From positions 30,001 through 62,000 of the forward strand of contig JAIUPJ010000001.1 of NCBI GenBank assembly GCA_020160975.1: a DNA stretch of 32,000 bases, in the 5' to 3' direction. Origin of the DNA: Candidatus Saccharimonadota bacterium (GTDB taxonomy: Bacteria > Patescibacteriota > Saccharimonadia > Saccharimonadales > Saccharimonadaceae). The position numbers and the translations under genes are program-made. The notes beneath the pieces were generated by a model. That model saw nothing but the letters and a program-made list of their open reading frames with translations, did no database searches and was not told where the DNA came from. The number at the start of each line of letters is the position of its first letter. The stretch's first letter is position 1. This document shows, piece by piece, positions 463 to 26,926 of the stretch.

Positions 463-490
463 TTGTCAGTTCTGCTTTTTCTGCTATAAT
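463..490 (+). promoter_or_regulatory. Candidate rpsJ promoter with extended -10
   Basis: TTGTCA (463-468), 16-nt spacer, TGcTATAAT (482-490). The same TGCTATAAT motif recurs at 25665-25673 and 26879-26887. Confidence 0.55.
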
Positions 491-593
491 GACCTATACA
501 ATACCAATGGCATCAGAGAACTCAGCGCTGGCGATGACTCAATTCCGACCATCGCAGAGGTTACTGGAGCAATAATCAAGAAAGGAGATTCAG

Positions 594-640
594 GGAAAGC
601 GCAGCCGGATAAGCGAATTCGCTTCTCTGTCCGCGCAATA
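594..640 (+). promoter_or_regulatory. Diverged third copy of the nested-hairpin RNA element, in the rpsJ 5' leader
   Basis: It shares the GCAGCC 5' flank and the CGC 3' flank with the other two copies. Inner hairpin is AAGCG/CGCTT (611-615/620-624). Outer 4-bp stem is CGGA/TCCG (606-609/630-633), in the same nested arrangement as 11275-11304 and 16941-16970. Confidence 0.4.
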
Positions 641-730
641 GGACACGGGGCTCCCAAAAAAATTGCAAGATTTTGAGGGGAGAAGTACCGCAGTTTTTCC
701 TATTCAGTGAGTTCCTTGAACGAACGAGTT

Positions 731-1166: not shown

Positions 1167-1484
1167 CTACTGTGCTGTTGGAGACATGATTGAAATACTA
1201 TCTTGGTTCAATGAGTCGACTTCGTCGTAGATGCGTTGGACACGATCGTTAATATCGACTACCCATAGCCCGAGAGCGAGCACGATGATAGCCAAAGCCG
1301 CCCAATAAATCGTTTGTCGAGTGACACGAAGTGTCAAGAATGGGTCAGCGGGTCGCGCAATCCGAAATGACTGCACTGGAGCATCTCTCTTTCGCACCGT
1401 ATGAGTTACTGATGTCTTTGCTGTTGATTTAGCTGGTGCGCGCTTTACCGTCGCTTTTTTTACCGATTTCTTTGCAGTTGCCAT
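1167..1484 (-). CDS. Small bitopic membrane protein (lysine-rich N-terminus, one TM helix), function unknown
   Basis: AAGGAG lies 5 nt upstream of ATG 1484; the tracked GTG 1490 overlaps that SD. The hydrophobic segment is IYWAALAIIVLALGLWVV. Confidence 0.6.
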   Translation of the reverse strand: MATAKKSVKKATVKRAPAKSTAKTSVTHTVRKRDAPVQSFRIARPADPFLTLRVTRQTIYWAALAIIVLALGLWVVDINDRVQRIYDEVDSLNQDSISIMSPTAQ

Positions 1485-1568
1485 GACCACTCCTTAGATA
1501 ATTATCATTAGCTTCATTATCCTTAATGCCTGTCCGAATTGCAACATGCTTATGATATACTGGTGCCA

Positions 1569-1877
1569 ATGGTCAGAACACGAAACAAAAAGACACCTAC
1601 GAAAAAACGATACAAACTACGCGATCGGCAAGAGACCGACGGGCAGTATCTTCTCAAGCTTGTGCTGGTTATTCTCATGGGCACAGCATGGTTGAAGTTT
1701 GCGACGCCAGTAATGCTCGGCCCTGTACCTGTCGCCGGACTTCCGATCGGCATGCTGTTTGCCTTTCTTGTGATTCGTCGCTTTGAAAAACGCCAGGCCG
1801 ACCGCAAGATTTGGTACGCAATGCTCATCGTCGTGACGCTGATTTGTTACTTCGTGCCAGCCGGCATCATGATATAG
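1569..1877 (+). CDS. Small polytopic membrane protein, function unknown
   Basis: Basic N-terminus followed by about 3 hydrophobic segments. It ends 3 nt before the deacetylase gene. The start is uncertain: TTG 1539, GTG 1563 or ATG 1569. ATG 1569 sits 7 nt after a TATACT box (1556-1561), so the mRNA may be leaderless. Confidence 0.5.
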   Translation: MVRTRNKKTPTKKRYKLRDRQETDGQYLLKLVLVILMGTAWLKFATPVMLGPVPVAGLPIGMLFAFLVIRRFEKRQADRKIWYAMLIVVTLICYFVPAGIMI

Positions 1878-1880
1878 ACG

Positions 1881-3332
1881 ATGGTACGCAGGAAATCACA
1901 GCGCATCTCTCTTTTCTTCACCACCATCTCTCTTGCCGTGGGGTTGATTGTCACGGCTTGCTTCCTCGTGCTCGGCAAAGAGCAGGTACCTGTTACGCAG
2001 AAATCAAATGAAAAGTACTATTGGCAAGATTCAAAATACAACGACATCCGAACGCGAGTCGCAAAACAATCGGGCTCGACATATCAATCATTTGTCGAAT
2101 ATCCGGTGACAAAAAGCCCCGAAGTCAACCAAAGAATCGCCGATACCATCGACGAATTCGACCGGACATTCCACGCCGAAATTGAAGGCCGATTGCCTGC
2201 GGGTAAAGAGCCGTTTATGCAAAATACTAGCTACCAGGTGATCAGAATGACCGATGATTTCTTGTCGATCGAAGTCGTCACAAGTCGCAATACCGAAGAT
2301 GCGCTAGTGCACTCGGGCACTGCCTACTGGACGTTCAATCTCGAAACAGGGAGCGAAGTGACGCTGGCCGATATATTTGGCGACGAGCAGAGCGATGGCC
2401 AGGCCCGTCTTTTTATATACCTCAAGCGCGAACTCGCACGACAAGCCAAACTAAAGGGTATCCCGCTCGATGCCGATAAGGTTGCAAACCTCGTCACACA
2501 GGAACATATGAAGAGTTTTCTTGCGCCCGATGCCGATACGCTGCGGTTTGACTTTGGCCAAGGCGTGGTCGCCTCTGAGTCGGACGACCCGCTGACGGTC
2601 ACTTTGTCGATTAGCAACTTGCAGTTATTCCTGCAGTCAGAGACGGCCAGACGACTTTTTACGATTATGCCGATAGGCGATGCGCCAGAATGGAAGGCCC
2701 CAGAGGTCAATCGAGGAAATGTCGACTGCGCCCGGGTCAAGTGCATTGCGCTAACGTTTGATGACGGGCCGGGGGTGTTTACGAACAAATTACTGGATAC
2801 GCTCCAGCAATACAAGGCCCATGCTAGCTTTTTCTTGATCGGCAAAAATGCCATCAGCTACAAAGATGTTGTCAAGCGCATGCAAAACGATGGCCACACC
2901 ATCGGCAATCATAGCTGGGATCACAAAAGTCTGCCACTACTGACGCCAGCGGCAATTGACGCGGAGCTCAGTCAAACAAATACCGAGATTACAAAGATAA
3001 CAGGAATAGTACCCAGCTATATGCGGCCTCCTGGCGGAGCGCTGGCGCCAAACGTCTACGCAGCACTCCAGCGCCAAAATATGACGGCGGTCATGTGGTC
3101 AGTTGACACGCGCGATTGGGCTGATCGAAATAGTGATATTGTGTACAACCGAGTTGTTTCTGGTGCCAAACCTGGCGCGATTATCATCTTGCACGACATT
3201 CACAAAACCAGTGTCGATGCTGTACCGCGTATTCTCAAGGCGCTCCAGCGCCAAGGGTATGCTTTTGTCAGTATCGACGAGCTATTCGGCCCCAACGCCG
3301 CTCCCGGAAAAGCTGTTAGTCACGCATCGTAA
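1881..3332 (+). CDS. Membrane-anchored polysaccharide/peptidoglycan deacetylase (NodB domain) with an RsiV/PdaC-like middle domain
   Basis: N-terminal TM helix. The C-terminal NodB motifs are TFDDGP, HSWDH and LHD. The middle region resembles the DUF3298/DUF4163-type domain seen in B. subtilis PdaC and RsiV. That middle-domain assignment is from memory and was not aligned. Confidence 0.85.
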   Translation: MVRRKSQRISLFFTTISLAVGLIVTACFLVLGKEQVPVTQKSNEKYYWQDSKYNDIRTRVAKQSGSTYQSFVEYPVTKSPEVNQRIADTIDEFDRTFHAEIEGRLPAGKEPFMQNTSYQVIRMTDDFLSIEVVTSRNTEDALVHSGTAYWTFNLETGSEVTLADIFGDEQSDGQARLFIYLKRELARQAKLKGIPLDADKVANLVTQEHMKSFLAPDADTLRFDFGQGVVASESDDPLTVTLSISNLQLFLQSETARRLFTIMPIGDAPEWKAPEVNRGNVDCARVKCIALTFDDGPGVFTNKLLDTLQQYKAHASFFLIGKNAISYKDVVKRMQNDGHTIGNHSWDHKSLPLLTPAAIDAELSQTNTEITKITGIVPSYMRPPGGALAPNVYAALQRQNMTAVMWSVDTRDWADRNSDIVYNRVVSGAKPGAIIILHDIHKTSVDAVPRILKALQRQGYAFVSIDELFGPNAAPGKAVSHAS

Positions 3333-10293: not shown

Positions 10294-10294
10294 T

Positions 10295-10465
10295 ATGCCT
10301 GAAATGCATGGTCGCAAGTTCGAATTCCCAGTGATTAAAACAGATTTATCACCTGAACGAAGAGATGCAGTGAGTAAGTATTTCATGAGAGTCGCGGAAA
10401 GGCTTCATAAATTGAACCCTGTACGCTCCGAATTTCTCAGAGAGAAGAATGTTAAGAAAGGATAA
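10295..10465 (+). CDS. Unlisted small ORF, 56-aa basic protein (MPEMHGRKFEFPVIKTDLSPERRDAVSKYFMRVAERLHKLNPVRSEFLREKNVKKG)
   Basis: Translated by hand; it falls below the ORF-track length cutoff. The ATG lies 1 nt after the rpsH stop, with AAAGG 9 nt upstream. G+C is 69/171 by hand count (about 40%), against about 55% in a 60-nt hand count of early rplF (10741-10800). No family recognised. Confidence 0.35.
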   Translation: MPEMHGRKFEFPVIKTDLSPERRDAVSKYFMRVAERLHKLNPVRSEFLREKNVKKG

Positions 10466-10531
10466 GATATGAATCGAATTGGAAAACTACCAATCAACAT
10501 CACTAGTGGTGTGAAGATCACAGTCGACTCA
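10451..10531 (+). repeat. Direct repeat copy A (rplF RBS plus first 21 codons)
   Basis: 81 nt aligned by eye to 10691-10771 at a 240-nt offset, with 9 mismatches. There are 4 mismatches in the 63 nt from the ATG onward. Confidence 0.85.
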
Positions 10532-10549
10532 TCAACGAAAGGAGCTTAA
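10469..10549 (+). pseudogene. Truncated duplicate of the rplF 5' end (26 codons, MNRIGKLPINITSGVKITVDSSTKGA*)
   Basis: Matches the MSRIGKLPINIPSGVTITVDS start of the real rplF at 10709. The conserved IP is changed to IT, and a stop follows after divergence at codon 22. Confidence 0.7.
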
Positions 10550-10553
10550 AGTT

Positions 10554-10694
10554 ATGGAAATATTCCTGATTATTTTTCTACCGATCATCGCGATGTGCGC
10601 AGTAATTGGCACAATCACCTTGGTTGCAATCGCAAATGAACAGCACAAGATCTTGACGATGCTGCACGAGCAGTCTCAAAAAGATAATAAGTAA
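10554..10694 (+). CDS. Unlisted small ORF, 46-aa hydrophobic peptide (MEIFLIIFLPIIAMCAVIGTITLVAIANEQHKILTMLHEQSQKDNK)
   Basis: Translated by hand. AAAGGAG SD lies 9 nt upstream of the ATG. It has one predicted TM helix followed by a polar/charged tail. G+C is 57/141 by hand count (about 40%). Confidence 0.45.
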   Translation: MEIFLIIFLPIIAMCAVIGTITLVAIANEQHKILTMLHEQSQKDNK

Positions 10695-10771
10695 AGAAAG
10701 GAAATTCTATGAGTCGAATTGGAAAACTACCAATCAACATCCCTAGTGGTGTGACAATCACAGTCGACTCA
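10691..10771 (+). repeat. Direct repeat copy B (functional rplF RBS and start)
   Basis: Partner of 10451-10531. This copy is continuous with the rest of rplF. Confidence 0.85.
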
Positions 10772-11245
10772 GACGTGCTAACCGTCAAGGGAGCCAAAGG
10801 CGAACTGAACGTACCACATCTGAGTGACGTCACGGTAAAAGAAGAGGACGGCAAAATCATCGTCACCCGCAAAGATGACGAGCGCATCGCCAAGGCCCAA
10901 CATGGCCTACAACGAGCATTGCTCAACAACGCTGTCGAAGGAGTCACCAAGGGCTTTGAGAAGCGTCTCGAAGTAAAAGGTGTGGGGTTCCGTGTCGCAA
11001 CCACCAACAATGTACTCGACATGAGCCTCGGCTTCAGCCACCCCGTACAATACAAGGCACCAGAAGGTGTACAGATTACCAACGACAAGATGACAATCAT
11101 TGTTGCAGGTATCGATAAGCAAAAAGTCGGCCAAGTGGCTGCAGAGATTCGCGCGATCAAGAAACCTGAGCCATACAAGGGTAAGGGTATTGCGTACAGC
11201 GACGAAGTAATTTTGCGCAAAGCAGGAAAGGCTGGTAAAAAATAA
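10709..11245 (+). CDS. rplF: 50S ribosomal protein L6
   Basis: Starts MSRIGKLPINIPSGV and contains VKGAKGEL. 178 aa. Confidence 0.96.
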   Translation: MSRIGKLPINIPSGVTITVDSDVLTVKGAKGELNVPHLSDVTVKEEDGKIIVTRKDDERIAKAQHGLQRALLNNAVEGVTKGFEKRLEVKGVGFRVATTNNVLDMSLGFSHPVQYKAPEGVQITNDKMTIIVAGIDKQKVGQVAAEIRAIKKPEPYKGKGIAYSDEVILRKAGKAGKK

Positions 11246-11262
11246 TGATTAGTAATTTTCAG

Positions 11263-11333
11263 GAAAAGAGCAGCCAGTCCCGAGCGATTCACTCGCTCGC
11301 ACTGCGCGATGAGAAAAACGTAGTTTGTCTCAT
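11263..11333 (+). promoter_or_regulatory. Nested-hairpin RNA element, copy 1 (rplF-rplR gap)
   Basis: Inner hairpin 11281-11287/11293-11299, outer stem 11275-11278/11301-11304, second hairpin 11309-11333. It is near-identical to 16929-17002, and the differences are compensatory. Confidence 0.6.
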
Positions 11334-11354
11334 AACCCGAAGGGGGAACAAGTA

Positions 11355-11711
11355 ATGAGTAATTCACTCGCGAAAAAACTACTAAATAAATCACTCCGCA
11401 AAGGCCGTGTCCGTAGCAAAGTTACGGGAACCGCTGAGCGCCCGCGCCTAAGCGTGACTATTAGCAATGTTCATGTGTCAGCTCAGCTGATTGATGACGA
11501 AAAAGGTCACACGCTCGCCAGTGCTACCACTGTAGGTAGTAAGGCAGCCGGTACGATGACCGAGAAGTGTGCTGCACTTGGCACCGAAATCGCCAAGAAA
11601 GCAAAGAAAGTTAAAGTAACCGCAGTCGTCTTCGATCGCAATGGTCGCCAGTACGCTGGTCGCCTGAGCGCTTTCGCTAACGCTGCACGTAAAGAAGGAT
11701 TGGAGTTCTAG
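11355..11711 (+). CDS. rplR: 50S ribosomal protein L18
   Basis: AAGGGGGA SD lies before ATG 11355; the tracked TTG 11325 lies inside the RNA element. L18-like RPRLSV and FDRNG motifs. Confidence 0.94.
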   Translation: MSNSLAKKLLNKSLRKGRVRSKVTGTAERPRLSVTISNVHVSAQLIDDEKGHTLASATTVGSKAAGTMTEKCAALGTEIAKKAKKVKVTAVVFDRNGRQYAGRLSAFANAARKEGLEF

Positions 11712-13059: not shown

Positions 13060-13539
13060 ATGAATAGTATCAAGAAGCTAACGATGGGACTCGCGCTTGT
13101 TTTGCTCAGCGCGTCATGCTCAGCGATGGTGTCGGACGGACAGGCGAGTGCTGCTGCGAGGTGTACTGACTACATGTATGGGTATGGAGGTAATGGAACA
13201 TGTGTTCGCTATTTACAGCAAATGCTCAATGCTGCGGGTGCAAACTGGGCAGAAGCATCATATTACGGCACGTGCTACGGCAGGTCAGTGTCGATGGAAG
13301 TACTTGCAACTGACGGGTCTTTTGGCGGTCGCACTGACGCAAAGGTGCGTAGCTTTCAATACGCCTACTGTCTTGGAACCGATGGCCTCGTAGGCCAGAA
13401 GACCTGGGCAAAACTCTGTCAGCGCGTAAGTGCCTGGTACACCAATACAAGCTACCCAGGTGCTTCAATGTATAACCAGAGTCATAATGCCGGCTACTAC
13501 GCTGGCTGTAGTAAGTACGGCTACTTCGCGCTCCGCTAA
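13060..13539 (+). CDS. Secreted cysteine-rich protein with peptidoglycan-binding (PG_binding_1-like) domain
   Basis: N-terminal signal peptide (MGLALVLLSASCSA). The pattern VRYLQQMLNAAG...TDGSFGGRTDAKVRSFQ...GTDGLVGQKTWAKL matches the PG_binding_1 consensus. GGAG SD lies 7 nt upstream. Confidence 0.7.
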   Translation: MNSIKKLTMGLALVLLSASCSAMVSDGQASAAARCTDYMYGYGGNGTCVRYLQQMLNAAGANWAEASYYGTCYGRSVSMEVLATDGSFGGRTDAKVRSFQYAYCLGTDGLVGQKTWAKLCQRVSAWYTNTSYPGASMYNQSHNAGYYAGCSKYGYFALR

Positions 13540-13558
13540 AAAGTATTGCTTAGAAGGT

Positions 13559-13585
13559 AAAAAGCCTCCTATGTGGAGGCTTTTT
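13559..13585. terminator. Bidirectional terminator between convergent genes
   Basis: 9-bp stem AAAGCCTCC/GGAGGCTTT with A-runs and T-runs on both sides. Confidence 0.8.
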
Positions 13586-13603
13586 ATGTCACCCGAGATG
13601 AAG

Positions 13604-14605
13604 CTATCTACCTATTGCAGTGCTCGTAGCTGCTGAAGCACTACACTCGCTAATATTGATATTGACCTCGATGCGGCGATCGATATCGTCACTTGTCGAT
13701 GATGCGCCACTTATAGGATTGTACAGTCTCACCATATCGGCAGGTACACCACGGGCAATAAGCTCGTTTTTGACCTTTGCTGCTCGTTGATTAGCCAGCT
13801 CTTCACCCGCTGCGGTACTTGATGACTCGCGAACAGACCCACGCACCATGTAAAAGAATGTTTTACCCTTGTTTACTTTATACACCTTGGCGATTTTATC
13901 TAGTTGCGCTGAACCGGTGAAGTCGCTGAGTGTATCAGTAGAGTCGGGCTTAAAGTAGATATTGTCCAGATAGGTGCCGTTACCACTGCTTACCCCAGCG
14001 TCGAGCGCCTCTTGATCGATATAGGAGATATCGGCGTTCAATAGATCGCTTACTGTTAAGCATTTGCCTGTCGAGGGATTCACCGTGGTATCTTTCTCTG
14101 TGTCGGTGACAGTAGTCTTGCCAGTGCTATTTAGGTTAAAGGTCGTGACTTTACCGCTCTTTACGACGACAGTCGTGTCTTTGAGTGTTTCAGAATTTTT
14201 GACAGCAAAATTTACCACAAAACCAATATCCTTGTTCTTGACATCGCTTATGTTGTAGCTGGCGCCTTTGAGTCCAGCAGTAGCACTCTTGGTGAGTGTG
14301 TCGCTGCCACTACCCGAAAGTTCTTTCATCTTTGCGTCGTTGTCGTCGCGGACTGCGTCCATAAAGTTGGTTGCGACAGCTCTCGCCTGAAGCCCAGGAT
14401 ACGCTATCGCAATGAATGCACCGACAGCGAGTAAAATGAGTACAAGTGGCAGTGTGATCCATAGCCAAAGAAGACTTCGCTTACCCTGCGGAGCAGGCGT
14501 CGACACATAGGGCGAGGCTTGTGTTGATGGCGCTTGGGGCTGCGACACTTGTTGTGCCGGCTCCCCTTGTGGACTGACGGGTGGAATGGGTGGCTGTTCG
14601 TTCAT
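13604..14605 (-). CDS. Membrane-anchored protein with P/Q-rich N-terminus and OmpA/MotB-like C-terminal peptidoglycan-binding domain
   Basis: AAGGAG lies before ATG 14605 (tracked start 14650). There is one TM helix (LLWLWITLPLVLILLAVGAFIAIA). The C-terminus NQRAAKVKNELIARGVPADMV...DRRIEVNI resembles the OmpA_C motif. Confidence 0.65.
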   Translation of the reverse strand: MNEQPPIPPVSPQGEPAQQVSQPQAPSTQASPYVSTPAPQGKRSLLWLWITLPLVLILLAVGAFIAIAYPGLQARAVATNFMDAVRDDNDAKMKELSGSGSDTLTKSATAGLKGASYNISDVKNKDIGFVVNFAVKNSETLKDTTVVVKSGKVTTFNLNSTGKTTVTDTEKDTTVNPSTGKCLTVSDLLNADISYIDQEALDAGVSSGNGTYLDNIYFKPDSTDTLSDFTGSAQLDKIAKVYKVNKGKTFFYMVRGSVRESSSTAAGEELANQRAAKVKNELIARGVPADMVRLYNPISGASSTSDDIDRRIEVNINISECSASAATSTAIGR

Positions 14606-14658
14606 AGAACTCCTTGTTAGTTGGTTATGGTTTTGATTATACCTGATCACTCACTTTT

Positions 14659-16782: not shown

Positions 16783-16899
16783 ATGAAAGTTCGTGCGAGT
16801 GTCAAAAAAATCAGCCCTGATGATCAGCTGGTTCGGCGTAAAGGCCGACTCCGTGTCATCAACAAGAAGAAACCTAAGAATAAGCAGAGACAGGGCTAG
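16783..16899 (+). CDS. rpmJ: 50S ribosomal protein L36, cysteine-free form (unlisted ORF, 38 aa)
   Basis: Hand translation gives [46 protein letters not shown] lies upstream. The usual Zn-ligand positions carry S, D, N and K. Confidence 0.9.
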
Positions 16900-16928
16900 T
16901 GAATATCATCAGTTCTTACGCGGTTAGC

Positions 16929-17002
16929 GAAAAGAGCAGCCGGTCTCAAGCGATTTATTCGCTTGCACCGCGCGATGAGAAAAACACTGGAGTTTGTCTC
17001 GT
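16929..17002 (+). promoter_or_regulatory. Nested-hairpin RNA element, copy 2 (rpmJ-rpsM gap)
   Basis: Inner hairpin 16947-16953/16959-16965, outer stem 16941-16944/16967-16970, second hairpin 16975-17002. Confidence 0.6.
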
Positions 17003-17026
17003 TAAGAAAGAAAGGCAGGGTTAAGC

Positions 17027-17413
17027 ATGGCTCGAATCTCTGGGGTTGTAATTCCCGCAGAAAAGCAAGTGCAGATCGCTTTGACGTATATCTACGGCAT
17101 CGGTCCTAAGCACTCTCGAGACATCCTTGCGGCGGCAAAAATTGAGCCGACCACTCGGGTGAAAGATCTCACCGAGGCTGAAGAGCAGAAACTTCGTGAA
17201 GTAATCGATCGCGATTACACTACCGAAGGCGATCTGCAACGCCTGGTGACCAACAATATTAAGCGTCTCAAGGACGTCAATGCCTATCGTGGTCTCCGCC
17301 ACAAGGCAGGACTTCCCACTCGCGGACAGCGTACTCGTACGAATGCACGAACTCGTAAGGGTAGGGCTGTTGCCGTCGGTGGCGCACAACCTAAAGCAGC
17401 AAGTAAGACCTAG
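17027..17413 (+). CDS. rpsM: 30S ribosomal protein S13
   Basis: Starts [26 protein letters not shown]. Confidence 0.96.
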
Positions 17414-25201: not shown

Positions 25202-25648
25202 ATGAATAGAACAGGAAAATATCCAGATACAATTTATCGCGTTGGAACAAAAGCTGTCATTAAAAACGAAGAAGGAAAGGTGCTCTGCGTACATGACACG
25301 GGCGAGGAGGACATGTGGTCGCTTCCTGGCGGAGGACTAGATCATGGCGATGACGTGCCTGGCGGTCTAAAGAGGGAGCTAGGTGAAGAGTTGGACTACC
25401 ATGGCGAGGTCGCACTTGAGTACAATAACTCGTGTGTCTACTACTCTCATGCAATTGGAGCTTTCGTTCTCTATCTTGTGTTCGATGTCGAGCTACTCGA
25501 CCAGTACTCTCCTCATGCTGGTATTGACGCAAAAGAGGTCGCCTATCTCAGCCCAGAAGACCTGGCAGGATATAACGACAGGCAAGCTGAAATCATTAAA
25601 AAGTATGGCTTTGGTGAAGCTATTGACTTTCCGATACTAAGACCTTGA
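25202..25648 (+). CDS. NUDIX hydrolase
   Basis: Nudix box GGGLDHGDDVPGGLKRELGEELD. Confidence 0.85.
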   Translation: MNRTGKYPDTIYRVGTKAVIKNEEGKVLCVHDTGEEDMWSLPGGGLDHGDDVPGGLKRELGEELDYHGEVALEYNNSCVYYSHAIGAFVLYLVFDVELLDQYSPHAGIDAKEVAYLSPEDLAGYNDRQAEIIKKYGFGEAIDFPILRP

Positions 25649-25673
25649 GACAAATAAAAGCCTCTGCTATAAT
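25645..25673 (+). promoter_or_regulatory. Promoter of the tRNA-Thr/tRNA-Tyr unit
   Basis: TTGAGA (25645-25650), 17-nt spacer, TGcTATAAT (25665-25673). Confidence 0.6.
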
Positions 25674-25710
25674 ACGTTGAAGCGTAAACGCTGCATCTGA
25701 TTATTTGTAT

Positions 25711-25787
25711 GCCGCTTTAGCTCAGCTGGTTAGAGCAACTGTTTTGTAAACAGTAGGTCCACGGTTCGAATCCGTGAAGCGGCTCCA
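25711..25787 (+). tRNA. tRNA-Thr (anticodon UGU), CCA encoded
   Basis: Cloverleaf folded by hand: acceptor GCCGCTT/AAGCGGC, anticodon stem ACTGT/ACAGT with loop TTTGTAA, T-loop TTCGAAT. Confidence 0.93.
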
Positions 25788-25841: not shown

Positions 25842-25926
25842 GCCGGAATCGTCTAGTGGCAATGACAAGAGACTGTAAATCTCTCGGCGCAAGCCTTCGT
25901 AGGTTCGAGTCCTACTTCCGGCACCA
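25842..25926 (+). tRNA. tRNA-Tyr (anticodon GUA), long variable arm, CCA encoded
   Basis: Acceptor GCCGGAA/TTCCGGC, anticodon loop CTGTAAA, variable-arm stem GGC-GCAA-GCC, T arm GTAGG-TTCGAGT-CCTAC. Confidence 0.93.
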
Positions 25927-26107: not shown

Positions 26108-26183
26108 TGGAGCCACGATCGGGGGTTGAACCCGAGACCTCATCCTTACCATGGATGCGCTCTACCAACTGAGCTATCGCGGC
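26108..26183 (-). tRNA. tRNA-Thr (anticodon GGU), CCA encoded
   Basis: The reverse complement folds with acceptor GCCGCGA/TCGTGGC (one G-U pair), anticodon stem CATCC/GGATG with loop ATGGTAA, and T-loop TTCAACC. Confidence 0.92.
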
Positions 26184-26841: not shown

Positions 26842-26858
26842 TCACTGGCTGCTTACTC

Positions 26859-26887
26859 TTGAAAAAATCATCCACCTCTGCTATAAT
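26859..26887 (+). promoter_or_regulatory. rpmG promoter
   Basis: TTGAAA (26859-26864), 17-nt spacer, TGcTATAAT (26879-26887). Confidence 0.6.
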
Positions 26888-26926
26888 CAGTTATTGATTG
26901 TAATTATCAACCACTAAAGGAACTCT

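Follow-up and report, generated by a model that had tools for sequence, protein, structure and literature searches.

Miniature inverted-repeat transposable elements (MITEs, among them Correia/NEMIS, RUP and ERIC) and the repetitive extragenic palindromic sequences (REP/BIME) are short (about 80-130 nt), non-coding, multi-copy repeats of transcribed intergenic DNA, which form stable hairpins in the transcript, fall into near-identical subfamilies and differ in presence or absence between close relatives. A structured element with the same properties occurs in the ribosomal protein (r-protein) operon of a Candidatus Saccharimonadota bacterium, a Saccharibacterium (TM7) of the Candidate Phyla Radiation (CPR). 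We analyzed 32,000 nt of its genome (assembly GCA_020160975.1, contig JAIUPJ010000001.1, positions 30,001-62,000, forward strand), hereafter called the window, in which the element lies before rplR (copy A), rpsM (copy B) and rpsJ (copy C). In contrast to MITEs, it has no terminal inverted repeats, and its target duplications measure about 20-43 bp instead of 2-10 bp. In further contrast to MITEs and REP sequences, no partner insertion sequence (IS) or RAYT-type gene was found for its copies, which show a preference for the sense orientation and for tRNA, rRNA and r-protein genes, and carry a single-stranded tail and one hairpin whose sequences are conserved across divergent hosts.

Rickettsia palindromic elements (RPE), which Ogata and co-workers reportedly described in 2000, are said to be small repeats located in essential and RNA genes and translated in frame, while the host gene still works. 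The likeness resides in the small palindromic repeats of a host-dependent bacterium with a reduced genome; however, our element shows no sequence similarity to RPE, belongs to a different host phylum and is not fused to a host protein; it would be read as a separate spacer open reading frame (ORF) between genes, enabled by the duplication of the junction. Classical intervening sequences of 23S rRNA lie in helix 25 or helix 45, consist of one long stem, are removed by RNase III and are restricted to rRNA. Members of the present family occur at what we take to be the tip of helix 45 and in another variable helix, and there they are likewise about 100 nt long, sporadic and devoid of an ORF; in contrast to intervening sequences, they also precede tRNAs, 5S rRNA and protein genes, and are known here from genes alone, the window containing no rRNA. 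The ends of IS200/IS605 elements, the PATEs and the REP sequences with their RAYT proteins share strand-specific recognition of an imperfect hairpin, from which an orientation bias could follow according to the replication or gene strand. Those systems insert beside a short specific motif and are not known to make target duplications, whereas our element duplicates its target, and no TnpA or RAYT gene was seen near its copies. Finally, the S10/L4, spc/S8 and alpha/S4 leaders (Alpha_RBS, RF00140) are also structured RNAs that directly precede r-protein genes and extend over the ribosome-binding region, but the element is not found at orthologous positions, is not limited to r-protein genes, has no Rfam match and, at internal junctions, would be read through by ribosomes. 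The element differs in defining features from its nearest analogues (MITE/REP repeats, RPE and 23S intervening sequences); no description of it was found in the searchable full-text literature, and no family of Rfam 15 corresponds to it.

As judged from the sequences of related genomes, the copies of the window clearly originated as insertions of a dispersed, structured, non-autonomous element. We consider it probable, on balance, that A, B and C are members of a large, apparently undescribed family of non-autonomous structured mobile repeats, which are tolerated where they are harmless and whose fold is read by a mobilising machinery. Two covariance models were used, R1, built from copies A and B, and R2, the model of the whole family; the three copies and their R2 scores are as follows.

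Copy A, 11258-11340 (+ strand): in the rplF>rplR gap; 84.0 bits, E = 3e-24.
Copy B, 16924-17009 (+ strand): in the rpmJ>rpsM gap; 85.9 bits, E = 9e-25.
Copy C, 589-710 (+ strand): diverged long variant in the rpsJ 5' leader; 34.3 bits, E = 7e-9.

The comparison was carried out with 80 Saccharibacteria genomes whose L18 is 73-84% identical to that of the window. In every one of the 80, rplF runs into or directly adjoins rplR (spacing of -4 to +2 nt), and rpmJ and rpsM are separated by 2 nt in 53 of 55, the remaining two having gaps of 53 nt (L020) and 31 nt (L058). Neither R1 nor R2 found a match in the 1.26 Mb of operon sequence from these relatives, in which only 12 of the 80 loci reach rpsJ; since R1 scores foreign homologues at 24-84 bits, the absence from the relatives is real. 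Their tight junctions therefore imply that copies A and B are insertions specific to the lineage of the window. The initial annotation, made from the window alone, had proposed a dedicated cis-regulator at separate entry points of the r-protein cluster. This proposal did not survive the comparison, as the orthologous gaps lack the element (80 of 80 at rplF>rplR, 53 of 55 at rpmJ>rpsM) and the element is dispersed over many kinds of site.

At both sites the insert is bordered by two versions of the ancestral junction:

Upstream target duplicate of A, 11228-11257 (+ strand): end and stop of rplF, followed by a duplicated rplR start (TAATG) and first codons; aligns with 11340-11364.
Downstream target duplicate of A, 11340-11364 (+ strand): GGGGGAACAAGTAATGAGTAATT; working Shine-Dalgarno sequence and start of rplR.
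Upstream target duplicate of B, 16875-16898 (+ strand): functional 3' end of rpmJ, AAGAATAAGCAGAGACAGGGCTA, which differs from the relatives by synonymous changes.
Downstream target duplicate of B, 17003-17026 (+ strand): TAAGAAAGAAAGGCAGGGTTAAGC; its last 16 nt equal the ancestral rpmJ end and the rpsM Shine-Dalgarno sequence of the relatives.

The relatives have a single rplF/rplR junction, ...GGTAAGAARTAATGnCTAATTCAC..., and the flanks of copy A read GGTAAAAAATAATGA(TTA)GTAATT ... GGAACAAGTAATGAGTAATT. At rpmJ/rpsM the relatives show ...AAGAATAAGCAAAGGCAGGGTTAAGC|ATGGCTCG, with the ATG directly after AAGAATAAGCAAAGGCAGGGTTAAGC, and the flanks of copy B read AAGAATAAGCAGAGACAGGGCTAG ... AAGAAAGAAAGGCAGGGTTAAGC. 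The recognisable target duplication in the window amounts to about 22-26 bp; its upstream half retains the end and stop of the upstream gene, and its downstream half retains the Shine-Dalgarno sequence and start of the downstream gene. One relative, L020 (L18 83% identical), carries a duplicated junction before rpsM in which only the 3' part of the second hairpin of the element (P2) is retained, a remnant whose sequence fits a deletion between two GAAAA repeats, and it has no insert before rplR. The remnant at the rpsM site, together with the empty rplR site, implies that copy B is older than copy A; it also implies that the element can be lost.

Copies A and B are each about 85 nt long and share an ungapped 57-nt core that is 88% identical. 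Both adopt one two-domain fold as minimum-energy and centroid structure (ViennaRNA; z-scores of -2.8 and -3.1), consisting of a P1 stem around a 7-bp hairpin (P1a) and then a bipartite hairpin, P2:

Copy A: 5' tail, 11263-11272; P1, 11273-78 with 11301-04 and 11306-07; P1a, 11281-87/11293-99, with pentaloop 11288-92; P2, 11309-14/11328-33, with inner stem 11316-19/11323-26.
P3 mini-hairpin of copy A, CCC-GAAG-GGG, 11336-11345 (+ strand): its 3' strand, the purine run GGGGG, provides the rplR Shine-Dalgarno sequence.
Copy B: P1, 16939-44 with 16967-70 and 16972-73; P1a, 16947-53/16959-65; P2, 16975-80/16997-17002.

On recheck, the inner hairpin, the outer 4-bp stem (11275-78/11301-04 in A, 16941-44/16967-70 in B) and the second hairpin of both copies fell exactly where the initial annotation had placed them by hand folding. 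Its claim that all differences between the two copies are compensatory or unpaired was also borne out, with one further change that gives a U-G wobble: there are 9 substitutions and one 3-nt loop indel, four of the substitutions make up two compensatory double changes, one leads to the U-G pair, and the remainder fall in loops or in the bulge. When 9 random substitutions were simulated, all 23 of 23 pairs stayed canonical in 0.15% of the trials, and did so with at least two double changes in 0.02%. The fold of the proposed 70-nt element stood, its extent did not, because the element also comprises a 5' tail, GGAAAAGAGCAGCC, which is single-stranded and conserved, and in many cases a 3' mini-hairpin formed with the Shine-Dalgarno purines; likewise, the duplication before rplR and rpsM is real, although incomplete as a count, given the third, diverged copy at 589-710 before rpsJ. 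Among ten same-species contigs with identical L18, copy A is present in 10 of 10 and copy B wherever its site is covered. An allele of copy A, A', found in seven of the ten, has three changes (one in a loop, one from G:C to G:U and one in the bulge), and copy B is invariant across four such contigs.

Copy C, which the covariance models detect, ends 20 nt before the rpsJ start (ATG at 731) and has about 50 nt of extra sequence inside P2. Approximately 100 nt upstream of it lies the following site, which is kept in genomes with and without copy C and, from its sequence, is probably the promoter of the rpsJ transcript carrying this copy.

Promoter-like site, 463-490 (+ strand): TTGTCA-16-TATAAT with a TG extension, 11/12 matches.

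Among genomes with 100% identical S10, copy C is present in L211, L219 and L220 and missing in L212-L218, where the promoter and the rest of the rpsJ leader align despite its absence. The L219 allele of copy C differs by an A-U to G.U change, by changes in one internal loop and by a loop indel. Filled and empty alleles differ by about 105 nt plus a further 27 nt or so, with no simple junction from which a target duplication could be read. The long-variant architecture was also found, among the metagenome matches listed, in L110, L120, L128 and L187; with window 589-710, these form a long subfamily whose P2 contains a domain of about 50 nt, GGGGnCCCC ... small hairpin ... GGGG..GUACCG. Between the promoter-like site and copy C, the rpsJ leader of the window contains a short upstream ORF (508-576, MASENSALAMTQFRPSQRLLEQ*), the sequence of which is conserved with and without copy C.

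The family was delimited by scanning metagenome contigs with a single pattern, derived from the positions common to copies A, B and C and leaving P2 unspecified. At least 120 loci matched, about 115 or more of them clear homologues, and a profile search of these loci gave at least 134 elements, with up to four per locus. A typical member is about 80-90 nt long and begins with a conserved purine-rich 5' tail (GGGAAAAGAGCAGCC), followed by P1, which encloses P1a, hypervariable in both sequence and length while covarying. P2 is nearly invariant (GAUGAGAAAAACC...GGUUUGUCUCAU, consensus GAUGAGAAAAACCGUAGGUUUGUCUCAU), even though it had been left out of the search pattern. A P3 hairpin (CUCC-GAA-GGAG, CCC-GAA-GGG or GGC-GNA-GCC), whose 3' strand is formed by the Shine-Dalgarno purines, is frequent after family members. 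In the family consensus, AAAAGAG of the tail mirrors GAGAAAA of the P2 5' strand, and the 5' flank often reads AGCU(C/A)A, which might form a P0 helix (GCUC/GAGC) with the GAGC of the tail.

In 119 aligned homologues, 94.5% of the cells pair and double changes occur at 18 of the 23 pairs; the covariation score of these 119 copies, whose alignment was itself fitted to the model, is 0.40; shuffles give 0.10 and slid controls no more than 0.08. RNAalifold, used for the consensus fold, returns the same structure as the model, in which the pair at alignment columns 22-95 is in fact a conserved mismatch. The selection on an RNA fold that had been proposed from two copies is thus supported by the covariation, the double changes and RNAalifold. 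Moreover, G.U combinations exceed A.C in P2 (27 vs. 4), an excess which indicates that the listed strand is the folded one.

The signs of mobility in the family are several. Copies in L124, L199, L194 (two copies), L144, L108 and L178 are flanked by direct repeats of 43, 43, 41, 38, 42, 36 and 33 nt at 95-100% identity, while shorter repeats, or diverged ones that are older, flank others; target duplications range across the family from about 20 to 43 bp. A filled site in L096 differs from the empty site of L019 (S3 96% identical) by the insert plus a duplication of about 19 nt covering the Shine-Dalgarno sequence and start. An identical P1 insert, CGACAAAATGTATTCCATTTTGCCG, occurs at 8 different sites among the metagenome matches listed. 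At the msrA site, different genomes have different P1a subfamilies, implying independent insertions or replacement; for the same reason, the msrA copies were dropped as orthologues for an estimate of constraint. The element therefore has the characters of a dispersed repeat: many unrelated sites, near-identical subfamilies and presence/absence polymorphism. No transposase or reverse transcriptase recurs among the 582 ORFs located within 2.5 kb of the copies, where the neighbours are r-proteins, SSB, S6, MsrA and similar proteins. No terminal inverted repeats were recognized either, the tail GGGAAAAGAGCAGCC not being the reverse complement of the 3' end GGTTTGTCTCATTAC as read from the consensus. 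The family pattern gave 0 matches in viral contigs, and there is therefore no sign of a phage vector.

Regarding its sites, the element is most often found close to RNA genes. For 25 of the listed copies, a tRNA on the same strand begins 1-14 nt downstream, and others lie directly before 5S rRNA and before the 5' end of 23S rRNA, where L099 has two tandem copies (oriented coordinates 1380-1593). In L116, L150 and L190 the element is inside 23S, directly before GGUAGAGGAGCGUU; we take this site to be the tip of helix 45 (about 1170-1185 in E. coli 23S). Further copies lie in a second variable helix of Saccharibacteria 23S, the large-subunit rRNA model spans 23S genes that are 400-900 nt longer than the Rfam model, and rRNA operons (L099, L190, L150 and L116) can contain three or four sense copies, for instance a tandem pair ahead of the 23S 5' end, two within 23S and one preceding 5S. 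At r-protein operon junctions, copies precede the genes for S3, S17, L2, L4, L23, L14, S14, L13, L11, L10 and S18; others were found before ssb, dnaK and the genes for RNase III and aminoacyl-tRNA synthetases, and at intrinsic terminators and gene 3' ends, and the 5' end of msrA carries copies on the opposite strand. With respect to co-directional neighbours, about 70-75% of the copies are sense and 25-30% antisense, and the sites are non-random, being enriched near genes of the translation apparatus. Where r-proteins permit a comparison, the hosts are Saccharibacteria or relatives: the r-proteins downstream of copies are 44-84% identical to those of the window and up to 96% identical to those of named Saccharibacteria metagenome-assembled genomes. 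This dispersal, with target duplications at tRNA, 5S, 23S, terminator, msrA (antisense), dnaK and ssb sites, and the gaps of the relatives that lack the element are both outcomes which the initial annotation had named as contrary to its own proposal.

In a 2024 survey (PMC11270868), 64 of 66 rRNA inserts in Saccharibacteria were short, lacked introns and homing-endonuclease genes, lay at known intervening-sequence sites and were left uncharacterised. The present family probably accounts for the short 23S inserts of that survey.

With respect to tRNA genes, the three of the window, 25711-25784 (+), 25842-25923 (+) and 26111-26183 (-), are free of the element, although elsewhere it is found most often in tRNA leaders. 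Close to this tRNA cluster, at 25644-25678 and 26858-26892, are two promoter-like repeats that resemble each other, CTTGAnA...CTCTGCTATAAT. In L183, the tRNA detected by ARAGORN about 14 nt downstream of an element has the anticodon UUA ('tRNA-Stop') and in other respects closely resembles the tRNA-Tyr (GUA) of L148, located at the same kind of site; from its sequence, it could be suppressor-like or mutated.

The way in which the insertions of the window could be tolerated within a cluster of essential genes is suggested by two ORFs that bridge the interrupted junctions. Genes were identified by their translations and by the Pfam labels on identical public loci (L081 for the rplF locus).

rplF (L6), 10709-11245 (+ strand): upstream of copy A; Pfam Ribosomal_L6.
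Bridging mini-ORF A, 11245-11355 (+ strand): 36 codons; runs from an ATG that overlaps the stop of rplF (TAATG) to a TAA that overlaps the ATG of rplR (TAATG).
rplR (L18), 11355-11711 (+ strand): downstream of copy A; Pfam Ribosomal_L18p.
rpmJ (L36), 16783-16899 (+ strand): upstream of copy B; Pfam Ribosomal_L36.
Bridging mini-ORF B, 16899-17024 (+ strand): 41 codons; runs from a GTG that overlaps the stop of rpmJ (TAGTG) to a TAA that ends 2 nt before the rpsM ATG.
rpsM (S13), 17027-17413 (+ strand): downstream of copy B; Pfam Ribosomal_S13.

Both ORFs read the element in the same frame, which is kept because the only indel between the copies is of 3 nt; at tightly coupled junctions the open frame is AGG GAA AAG AGC AGC. 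Fifteen of 31 copies in an ORF context have a start codon 12-33 nt upstream in that frame and end on the downstream start or no more than 20 nt from it. In nine of the fifteen, which represent seven kinds of site, the stop forms TAATG with the downstream ATG, in one the overlap is ATGA, and five stop within 20 nt; the overlapping copies precede S17, L2 (3), L4 (2), L23, L14, RNase III and an AtpG-like gene, and they include the long variants of L110 and L128, in which the bridging ORF stays open through the extra domain. Over the entire family there is no coding constraint, the core length modulo 3 being distributed 61/14/43 and frame 0 being open in 52 of 118. As about ten independent sites use a frame to be expected in one case out of three, we argue that only those inserts that preserve coupling survive at such junctions.

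The comparisons show that the element has entered the genome with a direct duplication of its target, and its copies occur where they are harmless, as in tRNA and rRNA 5' leaders, at the tips of variable 23S helices, in terminator regions and at gene junctions. Within the operon it would be co-transcribed, since it contains no promoter or terminator. Ribosomes finishing rplF or rpmJ could restart at the duplicated start codon, read the element as a spacer ORF of 36 or 41 codons and stop on the rplR start (A) or 2 nt before the rpsM start (B), so that translational coupling would be preserved. The fold and the sequence most likely reflect recognition, on one strand (RNA or single-stranded DNA), by a mobilisation machinery supplied in trans, and probably not a regulation specific to r-proteins. 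In favor of a fold required by the mobilising machinery are the spread of identical subfamilies over many sites, the polymorphic and dispensable nature of the copies, and their loss.

Several observations weigh against it. No mobilising gene (transposase, reverse transcriptase or other) was identified, nor a mechanism for the 20-43-bp duplications; an unrelated insert in the window is flanked by an 81-nt duplication (10451-10531/10691-10771), implying that long duplications may be general to insertions in this operon and not specific to the element. The flank repeats in the window are modest when taken alone, being reached in 9 of 200 (A) and 19 of 200 (B) shuffles, and it is the comparison with sequences of the relatives that makes them convincing. 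Hosts whose L2 is only 65-80% identical to that of the window share an almost unchanged tail and P2. Copy B has stayed intact, even though it was inserted before the separation from L020 (L18 83% identical) and its upstream target duplicate has since changed at half of its synonymous sites. In addition, the population variants of copies A and C are structure-neutral (G:C to G:U and A-U to G.U, respectively). The invariant tail and P2, the long-kept copy B and these neutral variants are together consistent with purifying selection in place, and hence with a function for the host, and less so with a purely selfish repeat. Finally, selection alone may not account for the enrichment near translation genes and the 70-75% sense bias.

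Some of these observations would agree with a domesticated cis-acting RNA module, read by one trans-acting factor (an RNase III-like endoribonuclease, an RNA-binding protein or a small ligand) or cleaving itself. Such a module would set the 5' ends or the stability of tRNA, rRNA and r-protein transcripts, serve as an intervening sequence of 23S and link the expression of the translation apparatus. We regard this explanation as a serious, if lesser, possibility. It is suggested by the copies lying 1-14 nt before tRNAs and directly before 5S and the 23S 5' end, by those inside 23S at the helix-45 intervening-sequence site and the second variable helix, by the near-invariance of the tail and P2 across divergent hosts, by the structure-neutral variation in place and the long integrity of copy B, and by the pairing of the Shine-Dalgarno purines in P3; the uncharacterised short inserts at RNase III intervening-sequence sites of Saccharibacteria 23S (PMC11270868) are also consistent with it. 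However, the element is dispensable, as it is missing from the junctions of the 80 relatives and polymorphic within a species at rpsJ. It is also partly deleted in L020, antisense to its neighbours in 25-30% of the copies (e.g. at msrA), present at terminators and gene 3' ends as well, and absent from the three tRNA genes of the window. Nor does it resemble the ribozymes or leaders of Rfam: self-cleaving classes (hammerhead, twister, pistol, hatchet, HDV-like and others) gave no match at E <= 10 with the three copies, and its GAUGAG does not stand, in our reading, in the context of a hammerhead core. Since the sites are enriched near translation genes and mostly sense, there is room for RNA processing, stability or coordinated control, and a shared processing step or trans-acting factor is possible.

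An alternative route for a mobile repeat, by analogy a bacterial counterpart of the short interspersed elements (SINEs), would be RNA-mediated: an abundant structured RNA would be the template of a host reverse transcriptase, which would switch to highly expressed transcripts (tRNA, rRNA and r-protein mRNA), and the product would be recombined into the genome. We hold this to be unlikely, although it would explain the sense bias and the preference for 5' regions of abundant RNAs, as well as the variable 20-43-nt duplications, the variable filler at the 5' junction, the missing inverted repeats and the strand-specific fold.

The remaining explanations are contradicted by the data. A DNA-level signal (an internal promoter, a terminator or a transcription-factor site) duplicated within the operon could be suspected from the location before highly expressed genes. 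It is very improbable, given that copies A and B have no sigma-70-like hexamer pair or terminator in or near them, that the promoter-like site about 100 nt upstream of copy C also occurs in genomes without the element, that P2 is not followed by a U-tract, and that a folded single strand is indicated by the covariation and by G.U outnumbering A.C.

Hardly credible is the model of the initial annotation, an autoregulatory r-protein leader that mimics an rRNA site and was duplicated to control rplR, rpsM and, by extension, rpsJ. Three sense copies do lie just upstream of r-protein genes, near the Shine-Dalgarno sequence, yet they are conserved at these positions in 0 of 80 relatives, appear from the sequence to be read through by bridging ORFs at operon junctions, and have counterparts elsewhere before tRNAs, rRNAs, dnaK, ssb, RNase III and msrA (antisense). 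The statement that the element is not one of the known r-protein leaders proved correct: in Rfam 15, no family reached its gathering score with any of the three copies and nothing relevant appeared at E <= 10, the best leader being Alpha_RBS (8.9 bits, threshold 38, E = 7.8). Between the tail and the L11-binding region of 23S there is a resemblance of 10 nt that is no more than casual.

That the element encodes a functional small protein, as ORFs A and B of 36 and 41 residues (open in one frame, with a 3-nt indel and with starts and stops overlapping the neighbouring genes) and similar ORFs at other operon junctions might suggest, has only the faintest chance of being true, because the differences between A and B are mostly non-synonymous, as are all three changes of allele A', P2 is read in two frames according to the core lengths (modulo 3, 61/14/43), frame 0 is open in only 52 of 118, most copies precede RNA genes and are not translated, and copy C has an in-frame stop. 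This peptide hypothesis, contradicted at the family level by core lengths and open-frame counts, led us to the bridging ORFs.

The element represents a widespread, strongly covarying RNA/DNA motif missing from Rfam 15, and a single unit populates 23S inserts, tRNA leaders and r-protein operons. It illustrates how ultra-compact genomes with overlapping essential genes may absorb insertions, by the duplication of the junction and a read-through spacer ORF. If it moves by an unusual route, as the 20-43-bp duplications, the lack of inverted repeats and the sense bias would suggest, a novel insertion mechanism would operate in the CPR; if it was domesticated, one common signal would serve to process or control the translation apparatus, in organisms for which very few regulators are known. 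In either case, the covariance model can be used to annotate such loci and to avoid spurious calls of small genes or novel riboswitches.

The gaps occupied by copies A and B had been described as the only long ones in a cluster of mostly short junctions. This description did not hold, as rpsH>rplF (415 nt) and secY>infA (about 337 nt) are also long, and the rpsJ-rplC and rplO-secY intervals each hold entire inserted genes. In the rpsH>rplF spacer (10294-10708), the rplF Shine-Dalgarno sequence and the first 60 nt or so of the gene are duplicated 240 nt upstream (81 nt, 89% identical). A 46-codon ORF (10554-10694), coding for a hydrophobic peptide (MEIFLIIFLPIIAMCAVIGTITLVAIAN...), lies between the duplicates, and the spacer holds a further ORF of 56 codons (10295-10465). 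This insert has the same flanking by a duplicated gene start as the element, with a different cargo. The spacing between S8 and L6 varies from 125 nt to 8.5 kb in at least 31 relatives (best tblastn matches only, for 40 sequences with both genes, window included), and rpsH>rplF looks, from these sequences, like a hot spot for inserted DNA in Saccharibacteria. Between rpsJ and rplC (about 1170-3332), the window contains a minus-strand ORF of 105 aa, an ORF of 102 aa and a polysaccharide deacetylase (Pfam), and between rplO and secY (13060-14650) it contains a PG_binding_1 protein and, on the minus strand, an OmpA-like protein (Pfam). The rplO-secY genes differ between L083 and L086, two loci with identical L18.

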